Of a stretch of DNA of 12,369 nucleotides, positions 1 through 6,000 are shown in pieces. Position 1 is the first letter of the stretch. Each line of letters starts with the position of its first letter. The stretch covers positions 1-12,369 of the IMG/VR virus record IMGVR_UViG_2923323785_000002; one strand, 5' to 3'. This stretch comes from a virus. Lineage: Duplodnaviria > Heunggongvirae > Uroviricota > Caudoviricetes. The position numbers are program-made.

Positions 1-3000
1 ATGGCACTGAATATTCCATTCAGAAATGCGTACTATCGTTTTGCATCCAGTTACTCATTTCTCTTTTTTATTTCCTGGTCGCTGTGGTGGTCGTTATACG
101 CTATTTGGCTGAAAGGACATCTAGGGTTGACAGGGACGGAATTAGGTACACTTTATTCGGTCAACCAGTTTACCAGCATTCTATTTATGATGTTCTACGG
201 CATCGTTCAGGATAAACTCGGTCTGAAGAAACCGCTCATCTGGTGTATGAGTTTCATCCTGGTCTTGACCGGACCGTTTATGATTTACGTTTATGAACCG
301 TTACTGCAAAGCAATTTTTCTGTAGGTCTAATTCTGGGGGCGCTATTTTTTGGCTTGGGGTATCTGGCGGGATGCGGTTTGCTTGATAGCTTCACCGAAA
401 AAATGGCGCGAAATTTTCATTTCGAATATGGAACAGCGCGCGCCTGGGGATCTTTTGGCTATGCTATTGGCGCGTTCTTTGCCGGCATATTTTTTAGTAT
501 CAGTCCCCATATCAACTTCTGGTTGGTCTCGCTATTTGGCGCTGTATTTATGATGATCAACATGCGTTTTAAAGATAAGGATCACCAGTGCGTAGCGGCA
601 GATGCGGGAGGGGTAAAAAAAGAGGATTTTATCGCAGTTTTCAAGGATCGAAACTTCTGGGTTTTCGTCATATTTATTGTGGGGACGTGGTCTTTCTATA
701 ACATTTTTGATCAACAACTTTTTCCTGTCTTTTATTCAGGTTTATTCGAATCACACGATGTAGGAACGCGCCTGTATGGTTATCTCAACTCATTCCAGGT
801 GGTACTCGAAGCGCTGTGCATGGCGATTATTCCTTTCTTTGTGAATCGGGTAGGGCCAAAAAATGCATTACTTATCGGAGTTGTGATTATGGCGTTGCGT
901 ATCCTTTCCTGCGCGCTGTTCGTTAACCCCTGGATTATTTCATTAGTGAAGTTGTTACATGCCATTGAGGTTCCACTTTGTGTCATATCCGTCTTCAAAT
1001 ACAGCGTGGCAAACTTTGATAAGCGCCTGTCGTCGACGATCTTTCTGATTGGTTTTCAAATTGCCAGTTCGCTTGGGATTGTGCTGCTTTCAACGCCGAC
1101 TGGGATACTCTTTGACCACGCAGGCTACCAAACAGTTTTCTTCGCAATTTCGGGTATTGTCTGCCTGATGTTGCTATTTGGCATTTTCTTCTTGAGTAAA
1201 AAACGCGAGCAAATAGTTATGGAAACGCCTGTACCTTCAGCAATATAGACGTAAACTTTTTCCGGTTGTTGTCGATAGCTCTATATCCCTCAACCGGAAA
1301 ATAATAATAGTAAAATGCTTAGCCCTGCTAATAATCGCCTAATCCAAACGCCTCATTCATGTTCTGGTACAGTCGCTCAAATGTACTTCAGATGCGCGGT
1401 TCGCTGATTTCCAGGACATTGTCGTCATTCAGTGACCTGTCCCGTGTATCACGGTCCTGCGAATTCATCAAGGAATGCATTGCGGAGTGAAGTATCGAGT
1501 CACGCCATATTTCGCTATCAGGATTCTGTGTGATGGTTACATCGCCCGGCTCAGGGCTGTTTAGTCATCAGCGCTTTCTGACAGTGCTGAGATTTCAACC
1601 TGTTGCAGTAAAAATGAGTAGATATAAGGCAAGTGTGCTGCCAAACCCATCTTTTACGGGGTGAAGGTAGATTTCGTTTGAAGGGTATCTGGTGTCCCCT
1701 GCAGACATCTACTTGACGAGGCAGGGGATTGATTGGAATGGTGTTTTTTAGATATGAGAAATATTTTACCCGCTATTTTACCCATTGGCGCGGCTTAAGA
1801 GCTTATTTTTGAATTCACAATGGTCACGATATAACCATCTTGCTCGCCCGTGGATAACTTTGGCTTTAGGCAGGTCTCCGGACTTAATCCGGTCATAGAT
1901 GAAGGTCTTACCAAAGCCAGTATCAGCCATGATGAATTTCAAATCAACCAGTGAATCAGGCTGTAGTTCGTGTTGCATGAGTGCTATCTCCGAATAGGGA
2001 ATCGAACCTGCAAATCAGGCAATAAAAAACCGCCATCAGGCGGCTTGGTGTTCTTTCAGTTCTTCAAATCGAATATTGGTTACATTGTTTTCATATATGA
2101 ATAAATAAATTAGCTTTTTCCGTTGCCTTCGCGATCTTTATTAATTTTGACAAACTCGTTTTTACCACGCTCTCCAAATGCGTCTTTAGAGTCGTTGTAT
2201 CCGCAATCGCAGCACACATAATCACCAGACCATCCACGCATTGTTTTTTCTTTTGCAATATTTCCAGAACCGCATTTTGGACAAGACATATCACTACCTC
2301 CAAAGCATGAGTGAGATGACAACGTAACATTGATTGGAGATTAACAATAGATTGCTGATGTAAAAGATATGTATAAGCTTCGCTTTCAAAGTGGAGGCTC
2401 TGGTAGCGGCATCCAGTGAGTTACGTCATCCAAGATATTTCCTGATAAATACGTGAAAGCTCTATATTTTTTGTAATCAATTGGATTTACAACCCAGTTC
2501 CAATACCGAAGATGGTTTTATGCGCGTTGCTAACGAGATTACCGACAGTCTGCTGATGGCTGATTTAACCGTCCGGCAGCTGAAGGTGATGCTCGCTATC
2601 ATGCGCAAGACATACGGATTCAATAAGCCGATGGATCGACTCACAAACACGCAGATAGCAGCCATGACAGGTATTCATCACACTCATGTTTGCGCTGCCA
2701 AGCGCCAGCTTATTGAGCGTAAATTCCTCATTGCTGATGGCGTGAAAATCGGAGTGAACAAGGTGGTTTCTCAGTGGATTAGCCAGGACAGCTTAACATT
2801 AGCTAAAACAGCTAATAAAACATTAGCCAAGTCGGCTAATGGGTATAAGCCAAGTCAGCTAAACACAAAAGACAATATACAAAAGACAATAAATACAAAT
2901 ACCCCCTTACCCCCTAACGGGGGCGGCGATGGGCAGGTTAAACCTGAACGTCGCAAGGCAGAACGAATCGACTACGAATCCTTCCTGAACGCTTACAACA

Positions 3001-6000
3001 CCGAAGTCGGTGACAGACTGCCACACGCTGTTGCGGTCAACGAGAAACGCAAACGCCGCCTGAAGAAAATCATCCCGCAACTGAAAACGCCAAACGTGGA
3101 CGGTTTCAGAGCGTATGTCAGGGCGTTTGTGCATCAGGCCAAGCCGTTTTACTTCGGAGACAACGACACGGGCTGGACAGCTGATTTTGATTACCTGCTG
3201 AGGGAAGATTCGTTAACGGGAGTTCGGGAAGGGAAGTTTGCAGACAGGGGGATTGCATGAAACAGGATATCGAAGCGAGCGTTATCGGTGGCCTGCTGAT
3301 TGGTGGATTAACACCAACTGCCAGTGACGTTCTGGCAACGCTGGAGCCGGAAGCGTTTTCAATTCCGCTCTACCGGAAAGCCTTCGAGGTTATCCGGAAG
3401 CAGGCGAGAAACAGAAACCTAATCGACGCGCTGATGGTTGCCGAGGCGTGCGGAGAGGAGCATTTCACGTCAATCCTGATGACCAGCAAAAACTGCCCGA
3501 GTGCCGCAAACCTGAAGGGATATGCCGGAATGGTCGCGGATAACTATCACCGCCGTCTGGTGCTGGAAATCATGGATGAAATGCGTGAACCAATCCAAAG
3601 CGGAACCATCGACGCATCGAGTCAGGCGATGGATGAACTTGTAAAGCGTCTTTCAGCCATCAGAAATCCCCGTGACGAGGTTAAACCTGTACGGTTAGGG
3701 GAAATCATCACTGACTACACTGACACGCTTGACAGGCGTCTGAGGAACGGAGAAGAGTCAGATACCCTGAAGACCGGAATCGACGAACTTGACGCCATCA
3801 CCGGAGGGATGAACGCAGAAGACCTGGTGATTATCGCCGCTCGTCCTGGTATGGGTAAAACCGAACTGGCGCTGAAGATTGCTGAAGGCGTTGCAAGCCG
3901 TGTTATTCCTGGTTCTGACGTCCGGCGCGGGGTATTGATTTTCTCAATGGAAATGAGCGCATTGCAGATTGCAGAGCGAAGCATTGCCAACGCCGGGAGG
4001 ATGTCGGTTAGCGTACTGCGAAATCCTGCATCGATGGATGACGAAGGCTGGGCGCGTGTTGCTAACGGCATGAGTCAGCTTGCGGATTTGGATGTATGGG
4101 AAACCGGTGTTCTTAAAAAGTTATATGCAGCTATAACAGATGACCAACAGGCTGTCGCAGAAAAATATGGCGCGGGGGAGTTATGGACGCTTGGTAAGGA
4201 GTTGGTAAAAACACGAAAATCCATTGAAGATGATGCCGTAACCGTTTTGGGTAGAAAACTTCAGCAATCAGCAATTCCAAAAGTTGAAAGTGCCGTTGTT
4301 AATATGGCAAAAGGAAACGGTGGTGACTTTAGGCAATTAATGAAGTCAATTCCAAAGGATATGCGGCAGGAAGTTGCGCTCACCTCAATGAATAAAGCAT
4401 TTACCAGCTATGCTAAATCACCAGGTCAGCAATTAGGGGTTGATGGATTTGTAAAATGGTATAACGGAATGTCACGCAATGGGGCCAATATGAAGGCTCT
4501 CCGTGATGCTATTGGCACAGATGCATCAAAGCGCCTTGATACGATTTATCAAGCAGCCAAGGCTATGAATAGACTCAATACTGGTAAGCAGTATGCTAGC
4601 AGCCTTGTGGATCAGCAAGTTAATAACTTTCTGAAGGAAAAGGGTAGTCTAGCAAAAATTTATGGAATAGCCTCAAAAGCTGCTGCTGCGGAAGGTGTTA
4701 CAAGCTTATCTGGTCTTCCTGGTGTAGGTGCAACAGGGGTGATAACGTCCGCATTGATGTCAGGGAAAACAAGCAGGATAAAGGCTGCTGATGCTCTACT
4801 GTCTTCTCCTGAGTTTAAATCAATGCTATTTCGCCTGCAAAACGCACCAGTAGACAGAGCAGAAGTGAGACGCGCAATAGAAAGGAAACTGATGCAATCT
4901 GGGGTATTTAAGAGATGGGAGAAAACCCTATCAACAGATGAAGCAAAAACCATTGCTCGCACTGGGATTATTACATGGTTATCTCAGCAAGATACTACAG
5001 CCAGTGACGGCGACCAAAAGATGTAACAAGGAACGAGATAATCCAACCAACCGTTACCATGTTAATCCCCATAAAGCCAAGGATGGCTATCTGTCAACTA
5101 AAGGACAATTGCTAATCCCCATGATCCCATTATCCGAGTACCAATAATTTCTGGAGAATTTTCCAGAAGCGCTTAGGTATTTACATTCAATCTTGTTACC
5201 GTCAGTTATTGATGAATATTTAACCCCATAACCAGTAAATGCAGACAAAACAAGTAAAAAGATTGCAAATAACCCAATAGTAAATTTTTTCATATCAACA
5301 TCCTTAGCATTTTCTTTTTACTTTTCCAACAAAAGCTTTGGTTGAATCCATATTCCCATAACCAGAAATGGTTTTCGACATTAAAACTGTTCCATTAGGA
5401 TGTATTACCCATGAGTCGATAACTCGTTGAGTTTCGCCATTCGCGCCGATTCCAATGATGGAGTTTTTAGACAATGCTTTGTAAGCCATGCCACCCGCAT
5501 CCGTCCCAGAATATGTGATGCTGGCATCTTCACCGCTTGTCTTAATGATAAATGTTCCACTAAAACCATCTTCTTCCGGTTGGAAATTATTTCGTTCTGA
5601 ATAGCTTATTCCGCGCATATCTCCAACAACCCAGCATTCTGCTGTAGCCCCAAAAGATATGAATAAGAACATACTGGCAATCAATCGCTTCACCCCAATC
5701 TCCCACTAAGGTAACAATATGACCATAGAAGAACGCCTGAACAACATTGAGTTGAATCAAACCCTGCTTGACCAGCGACTTTCAGATCTTGAGCTTAAAG
5801 ATCTTGATGCGCAAATATCAGAAGCAGAAGCCAAGCTCTCCAGCTTAAACCACCGTAAGAAGCAAATCCGCAACAGAATTACTCAGGTACGCGGAAGCTG
5901 TTGAGGTGGGATGCTAGGTCTCTATCGTTAAAATCAAGGCTGCTAATCATTTCATTGTAAATGGCGTTTTTATCTTCCATTGGCAGCCTTGAGTAAACCA

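Follow-up and report, generated by a model that had tools for sequence, protein, structure and literature searches.

Does a replication module that has an initiator gene and an origin but only part of a helicase gene still serve the element in which it lies? The question is raised by a stretch of 12,369 nucleotides (positions 1 to 12,369 of the IMG/VR virus record IMGVR_UViG_2923323785_000002, assigned to the Caudoviricetes), called here the window, which means that whole stretch. A first-pass annotation of 2520-5026 described there an intact O-like initiator gene, coupled to the gene downstream and enclosing an origin with three iterons, followed by a helicase without its C-terminal motor motifs, and proposed either a replication-defective passenger or an origin usable by a helper phage. 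The explanation that best accounts for the data, and one that we consider highly probable, is that 2503-4099 is an HK97-type O-origin-helicase piece stranded between two deletions in a decayed prophage at argW of Escherichia coli.

Two probable deletions in an argW prophage

In a megablast search of phage records, the O (gp54) and P (gp55, annotated as “similar to DnaB”) genes of HK97 match the window only at 2503-4100, with 98.2% identity, and both ends of this match lie inside genes. A whole prophage found at the same cscB / argW / yfdC site and in the same orientation, vB_EcoP-611R6 (GenBank ON470589), provides an intact comparator, being 97.9% identical to the window at 1-2505, 98.06% at 2503-4100 and 97% at 9889-12369. 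The record ON470589.1 is described as a “complete phage genome” and carries host genes at both ends (1-4323 and 44842-45921), namely cscA, cscK and cscB, and the tRNA-Arg gene and yfdC, so it represents a prophage region plus its flanks and not a packaged genome.

The homology with the left arm of 611R6 stops at position 2505 of the window. A three-way alignment of the window with the left arm and the O gene of 611R6 places the first junction at 2502-2506, with a 3-nt microhomology (ATA, 2503-2505). To its left, an early-left DUF551 gene survives only in its last 39 codons (2386-2505, minus strand), whose translation is the C-terminus of the 611R6 DUF551 protein. The 9,108 bp of 611R6 that are absent from the window at this point harbor the rest of the DUF551 gene, ea22, recT, N, cI, cro, cII, a small open reading frame (ORF) and the 5' end of O. 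The second junction lies at 4099-4100, with a 1-nt microhomology (G), and preserves the reading frame. Here, about 19.5 kb of 611R6 are lacking, a length that can only be approximate, as the ejection gene of 611R6 is another allele; they include the 3' half of the helicase gene, the nin genes, Q, the lysis genes and the terminase, as well as the genes for the portal, scaffold, coat and head-completion proteins and for the first two ejection proteins.

The element that hosts this fragment is bounded by two copies of the 15-bp sequence TGGTGTCCCCTGCAG. One forms the distal att core at 1690-1704, an exact direct repeat of the tRNA 3' end that marks the left boundary of the remnant, whereas the other forms the proximal att core at 11287-11301 (minus strand), which is the 3' end of the tRNA-Arg(CCT) gene argW, the integration site (11287-11361, minus strand; identified by ARAGORN, the Rfam tRNA family and the 15-bp repeat). 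Because of this repeat, and because in E. coli genomes with an empty site the sequence of window positions ~1249-1690 is joined straight to the tRNA, 1690-11301 can be delimited as a 9.6-kb insertion at argW. Its gene set is of the P22-like (Lederbergvirus) temperate phage type in Pfam, PHROG and Rfam scans, and the insertion appears from its sequence to be the remnant of a roughly 40-kb prophage of this type.

These observations suggest the following history. A P22-like prophage integrated at argW would have undergone two illegitimate deletions, leaving between them an internal 1.6-kb piece (2503-4099) of its HK97-type lambdoid replication module. The first deletion, of ~9.1 kb, would have joined the 3' end of the DUF551 gene to codon 22 of O, taking away the recombination genes, N, cI, cro, cII, the pR promoter, and the start codon and ribosome-binding site of O. 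The second, of ~19.5 kb, would have joined codon 281 of the helicase to codon 410 of the third ejection gene, removing the motor half of the helicase, the nin region, Q, the lysis genes, the terminase and the head genes, with the reading frame kept by chance to give a chimeric ORF of 589 codons. A prophage of roughly 40 kb would in this way have shrunk to 9.6 kb, and its “replication module” would be what happened to lie between the deletions. The fragment differs from HK97 at 28 positions of 2503-4100, 24 of them synonymous, with no frameshift or stop and no difference within 2715-2974; these differences appear to predate the deletions and to represent divergence among working phages instead of later decay.

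Junctions as abrupt as these might be produced by the misassembly of two prophages, although their abruptness is the only point in favor of such an origin. Thirteen contigs are on record with the exact 589-aa chimera, and the exact-protein look-up covered 20; all are named E. coli, the longest has 4.7 Mb, and the protein is alone in its 90%-identity cluster. Moreover, the four contigs that were fetched, one of them from the NCBI assembly GCA_012082495.1, show 100% identity wherever they overlap the window. Assemblies made independently from separate runs therefore agree with one another and with an NCBI genome, with contigs as long as 4.7 Mb, and this identity rules out misassembly, to which we attach practically no probability.

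The distribution of the deletions is very narrow. Among 5,426 complete E. coli genomes, none spans either junction, and a 30-mer across the right junction has no match in 185,579 species-representative genomes, so that the pair of junctions appears to be private to one clonal E. coli lineage. The helicase segment itself is carried by 612 of the 5,426 complete genomes (~11%). Cryptic prophages at argW, such as CPS-53/KpLE1 of strain K-12, and other grounded lambdoid remnants share with the remnant the site, an IntS-type integrase (95.5%) and decay by internal deletion, but they differ in the gene content that survives, and this deletion pair is present in none of the complete E. coli genomes.

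The truncated initiator, its origin and the helicase fragment

The initiator gene is clearly present, as the first-pass annotation held, but it is not intact. The product of the truncated gene, called O' here, matches the Pfam family Phage_rep_O (PF04492; E 1.2e-31, 109.5 bits for a cut-off of 28.7) and PHROG 345, “replication initiation O-like” (E 6e-95 for the ORF starting at 2481 or 2520 and ending at 3260). It occupies 2503-3260 on the plus strand and is 98-99% identical to HK97 gp54 from T23 on. Positions 5-95 of the 95 of the Phage_rep_O profile are kept in the HK97-derived DNA, i.e. the winged-helix domain is retained. However, DNA homology to HK97 O begins at window position 2503, which is the second base of codon 22, whereas the HK97 start codon lies 64 nt upstream of this onset; codons 1-22, the ATG and the AGGAG are replaced here by unrelated DNA. 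Only codons 23-273 of O are present in the window, and O' has neither the start codon nor the ribosome-binding site of a complete coding sequence.

Full-length relatives of O are 267-278 aa long and have a conserved N-terminal segment, VEHRVADTEDGF, the lost portion of which includes a VE(H/R)(R/Q)VAD motif, and this N-terminus is conserved among homologues of 71-99% identity. Pfam places the O domain at residues 19-113 of the HK97 protein. A start at the ATG at 2520, chosen by two gene callers and giving 246 aa, would drop the invariant residues D25 and G26 as well. The native start has a predicted Shine-Dalgarno pairing of -7.5 kcal/mol, compared with -4.5 for the ATG at 2520 and +0.8 for a TTG at 2481. 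Because the native start is missing, start calls disagree: the Logan contigs have a protein of 246 aa (ATG 2520), and GCA_012082495.1 one of 264 aa, which implies an ATT at 2466. Full-length O was also modelled with AlphaFold2 from 15 aligned sequences, to see whether the folded DNA-binding domain includes residues 1-27, but the model had a mean predicted local distance difference test score of 45, with residues 1-40 below 50, and was too poor for use.

The embedded origin was likewise recognized correctly in its position, inside O, but not in the number of its iterons. Four dyad-symmetric iterons of 17-19 bp, presumably the binding sites of O, are present at 2779-2862, starting at 2779, 2799, 2823 and 2846 (spacing 20, 24 and 23 bp), and all four match the pattern TWAGCYN5RGCTWA without mismatch. 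The expectation by chance is 0.34 matches even with one mismatch allowed, and at least four matches occurred in none of 200 shuffles. The peptide that the iterons encode, LAKTANKTLAKSANGYKP(S/T)QLN, is largely conserved, with 12 invariant positions, in homologues that are 71% identical overall, which fits a double constraint on protein and DNA. The iterons are followed by a 40-bp stretch with 78% A+T (2863-2902), a presumed unwinding element in view of its composition and of its position relative to the iterons, as in ori-lambda, and containing a 14-bp tandem repeat (ACAAAAGACAATAT/A). Next to it lies a G+C-rich flank (2903-2960, 36% A+T) with short inverted repeats, namely CCCCCTAACGGGGG at 2910-2923 and a pair of arms at 2926-2939 and 2941-2954. 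Over 2740-2960, the origin is 100% identical to that of HK97 and 99% identical to that of many Shiga toxin (Stx) and Salmonella phages. An Rfam scan of the window gave nothing within 2520-5026, its only matches, the sar RNA and the tRNA, lying elsewhere.

This arrangement is known from other phages. The initiator of lambda belongs to the same Phage_rep_O family, and ori-lambda has four iterons of ~19 bp in the middle of gene O followed by a region of high A+T content (PMC3985674, PMC3349717). The layout of the window's origin is the same, with the iteron array and the A+T-rich stretch in mid-gene between the N-terminal DNA-binding and C-terminal domains, but the iteron sequence differs from that of lambda, and with it the specificity, and the copy in the window is truncated. 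Gene 18 of P22 contains four repeats of ~20 bp, and the P22 helicase gp12 is DnaB-type (PMC8022706). The likeness to P22 concerns the type of system and the host element, which has a P22-like tailspike head-binding domain, mnt/arc/ant/sar and ejection proteins, whereas the two origins have in common only the A+T-rich stretch and G+C flank (window 2855-2948, 89.6%) and not the iterons. This rules out P22 itself as the source of the origin.

HK97 remains the closest reference, with 98.2% DNA identity over 2503-4100, an identical origin, and the same ATGA overlap and order of domains. Modules of its type are also present in the Stx phages 1717, 2851, YYZ-2008 and Nil2, in mEp213, HK544 and Salmonella ST104, and in the Lederbergvirus 611R6. 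In modules of the HK97 and P22 types, the O-like initiator binds iterons in its own gene and a phage DnaB-type helicase replaces the host DnaB, as is established for P22 gp12 (Wickner 1984, cited in PMC8022706). The partner of the initiator is thus a DnaB-type helicase here, in contrast to the P protein of lambda, a loader that recruits the host DnaB. Compared with HK97, the window has kept only O codons 23-273 and helicase codons 1-281, and it has no gp53, cII, cro or pR and no C-terminal half of the helicase.

The coupling of O to the downstream gene was well founded, since the stop codon of O and the start codon of the helicase overlap in an ATGA at 3257-3260, as in HK97. The helicase fragment (3257-4099, plus strand) corresponds to codons 1-281 of the HK97-type DnaB-like helicase and shares 278 of its 281 residues with HK97 gp55. 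It matches PF00772 (DnaB) at residues 3-95 and PF03796 (DnaB_C) at residues 171-280. The loss of the C-terminal motor motifs is borne out by the latter match, which covers profile positions 2-104 of 255, against 2-247 in the intact P of HK97, and by the alignment with E. coli DnaB (6bbm, 471 aa), which extends only over residues 33-304 and leaves 305-471 without counterpart. The fragment has retained the N-terminal domain and the linker, together with Walker A (GMGKT, 198-202) and H1a (SMEMS, 230-234), both of which align with E. coli DnaB. Walker B (H2), H3, H4 and the arginine finger are missing, and a complete RecA-like motor is consequently not encoded; the corresponding HK97 motifs, ADYLGL (Walker B), SQLSR (H3) and RDSGSIEQDAD (H4 and arginine finger), all lie beyond W281, the last shared residue.

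What follows W281 is not a degenerate helicase. The 298 codons at 4100-5026 (plus strand) are the C-terminal part of the third ejection protein, a “DNA transfer” protein in the position of P22 gp16, matching PHROG 6704 at positions 410-706 of 707 (E 2e-179). Residues 282-576 of the ORF correspond to residues 410-704 of the protein of phage E212 with 99% identity (97% at the DNA level), which rules out a helicase origin for this part. The E212 protein has 707 aa and is the third of three ejection proteins, so the window does not contain it at full length. Because E410 of the ejection gene starts at a codon boundary of the helicase frame, a single ORF of 589 codons (3257-5026) runs across the junction as a chimera, part helicase and part ejection protein. 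Two ORFs on the opposite strand (3715-4071 and 4660-4962, both minus) oppose phage coding sequence that is 97-98% conserved and were treated as spurious.

The idea of a replication-defective passenger therefore agrees with the losses: the motor half of the helicase, 22 codons of O with its translation signals, pR/cro/cII, and the late, lysis and head genes. The defect is indeed worse than was first held. The deletion of pR, cro and cII also leaves the origin without pR-type transcription across or near it in cis, and no sigma-70-like site was found on the plus strand between cscB and O' (1200-2600) in a scan limited to sigma-70 consensus sites. Lacking a promoter, a full initiator and a motor, the module would be unable to start replication alone, and both ORFs would therefore be recent pseudogenes that have not yet acquired stop codons. 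We are confident that autonomous replication is beyond this module and that its two ORFs are young pseudogenes.

Several points weigh against this conclusion. Read-through or a non-consensus promoter may transcribe the O' region. The ATG at 2520 has a modest Shine-Dalgarno sequence (-4.5 kcal/mol, like that of the element's ant gene), so that an O' of 246 aa could be made, and truncated O' may still bind the iterons. In addition, the in-frame fusion and the lack of disabling mutations are also compatible with retention by selection. They are, however, equally expected for a recent deletion, as a frame is kept in one of three cases and the known copies are identical.

Possible interactions with phages of the same replication type

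If the module cannot act alone, a phage of HK97 type, either infecting or induced, might supply O and the DnaB-like helicase in trans, as the first-pass annotation had suggested with a helper. The outcome would be either local over-replication around cscB-argW (“escape replication”) or replication of the element once Int and Xis had excised it. Since the origin DNA is 100% identical to that of HK97 at 2740-2960, an HK97-type O should recognize the iterons, and this DNA is a potential binding target for the O protein of such a phage. Phages and prophages of this replication type are common, judging from the 612 of 5,426 complete E. coli genomes (~11%) mentioned above, and the remnant has int, xis and both att cores. 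In mixed infections with lambda, moreover, the products of O and P are diffusible (PMC6022878). However, providing O and P in trans does not free ori-lambda from its need for RNA polymerase to act across the origin in cis (PMC3985674), and in the remnant pR is deleted and no promoter-like site faces the origin on the plus strand upstream. Replication would also not lead to transfer, as the packaging site and the small terminase were lost in the second deletion. We consider helper-driven use of this origin unlikely.

The remnant might alternatively hinder incoming phages of the same type as a domesticated decoy, by sequestration of O, by poisoning of helicase hexamers with the N-terminal fragment, or by titration of O on the iterons. 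Three observations in lambda give substance to this idea: plasmid-borne oop together with iterons 3-4 of ori-lambda blocks rep-lambda phages (PMC3349717), iterons on high-copy plasmids lower the establishment of lambda plasmids by competing for O (PMC3985674), and expressed N-terminal parts of lambda P abolish O complementation (PMC6022878). The reading frames of the fragment are, in addition, still open. None of the three cases transfers easily to the remnant. Transcription of oop from pO is essential to the lambda “inhibition phenotype”, and this whole region is deleted here, which eliminates a mechanism of that kind; the reduced transformation was reported for a high-copy pUC19 plasmid, whereas the chromosome carries the element only once; and lambda P loads a helicase and is no homologue of DnaB, making the analogy with P fragments loose. 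The scan for sigma-70 sites also gave no promoter for the O'-helicase region, and a single clonal lineage without sequence diversity gives no sign of selection. A decoy function is, in our judgment, most improbable. For the broader proposal that the remnant acts as a replication-type-specific interference element, whose origin captures the O and helicase of a phage or whose O' or chimera sequesters replication proteins, the chances are very slim.

The stranded HK97-type piece would also be a substrate for homologous recombination with HK97-type phages. It represents nothing new in kind, being a known HK97-type module in a decayed state and an ordinary dead remnant.

Other genes of the remnant and its significance

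The remaining content of the element bears on one further interpretation, i.e. an evolved phage satellite resembling phage-inducible chromosomal islands (PICI), mobilized by a P22-like helper and keeping int, an AlpA-type regulator or excisionase, and an origin. The size of 9.6 kb, the insertion in a tRNA gene, the location of int at one end and of a small helix-turn-helix/xis gene at the other, and an origin accompanied by part of an initiator are all reminiscent of such islands. However, every segment is 94-99% identical to ordinary genes of temperate phages, the internal boundaries fall within ORFs of those phages, and complete prophages of the same type occupy the same site in other strains. 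Furthermore, Pfam and PHROG scans of the element's ORFs revealed neither a primase-helicase gene nor genes for packaging or capsid redirection, and pac and terS were likewise absent. This gene content, which is not that of a PICI, rules out the satellite reading, and we give it scarcely any weight against a prophage decayed by two deletions.

At the two ends of the element lie the genes for its integration and excision. The integrase (9968-11161, minus strand) is an IntS-type tyrosine recombinase with the Pfam domains Arm-DNA-bind_3, Phage_int_M and Phage_integrase, and it is annotated as intS in E. coli genomes. At the other end, an intact ORF of 66 aa (1778-1978, minus strand) codes for a TorI/HkaC-like excisionase, similar to HkaC of HK620; it matches PHROG 66, “excisionase and transcriptional regulator” (E 2.7e-8), and its DNA is 98% identical to hkaC of HK620 and to the “putative excisionase” gene of 611R6. 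With both genes and both 15-bp att cores retained, the 9.6-kb remnant may be excision-competent.

Several other P22-type genes look complete. The immI region (6085-7814), with mnt, arc, an ORF of 80 codons and ant (6885-7814), appears intact although the phage that it would regulate is gone, and the sar antisense RNA is found at full length just upstream of ant (6816-6883, minus strand; RF00262, 81 bits, gathering score 43). The tailspike gene (7993-9828, plus strand) codes for 611 aa with the P22 head-binding domain and a beta-helix. Its ORF is unbroken, though all the virion genes to whose products the tailspike would attach are deleted, and in GCA_012082495.1 this stretch has no gene call despite identical DNA.

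The element also harbors two small ORFs known from Sf6- and Emek-type phages. Two leftward ORFs lie within 5087-5693 (minus strand), between the ejection-gene remnant and immI, one of 68 aa (Pfam YobH in precomputed matches; PHROG 21022) and one of 129 aa whose N-terminus is hydrophobic and which resembles Sf6 gene 38 (PHROG 2651), and this pair may represent lysogenic-conversion or exclusion “morons”. A small zinc-ribbon ORF at 2110-2322 (minus strand) belongs to PHROG 2945, of unknown function; its similarity to the Pfam restriction-alleviation protein Lar is below threshold (22.5 bits for a cut-off of 28.6), and gene callers assign it 59 aa, not 70. The insertion is flanked in the window by the sucrose permease gene cscB (1-1248) and a yfdC-like gene (11437-12369, minus strand). 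Farther out on the source contig, outside the window, a 72-aa fragment of a GntP permease (truncated, dsdX-like) is found between a dsdA-like gene and cscR.

For the annotation of E. coli genomes, the ORF called “AAA family ATPase” in public assemblies is a helicase/ejection-protein chimera that would have been made by deletion, and the adjoining “replication protein” call is truncated at its 5' end. The remnant would also provide a clean case of prophage decay through two illegitimate deletions with microhomologies of 1-3 nt. Its significance beyond annotation is small, and it would be of wider interest only if an interaction between the origin and phages were true: a perfectly conserved origin has been left in the chromosome, and the many Stx, HK97-like and P22-like phages that replicate in this way might in principle interact with it or recombine there.

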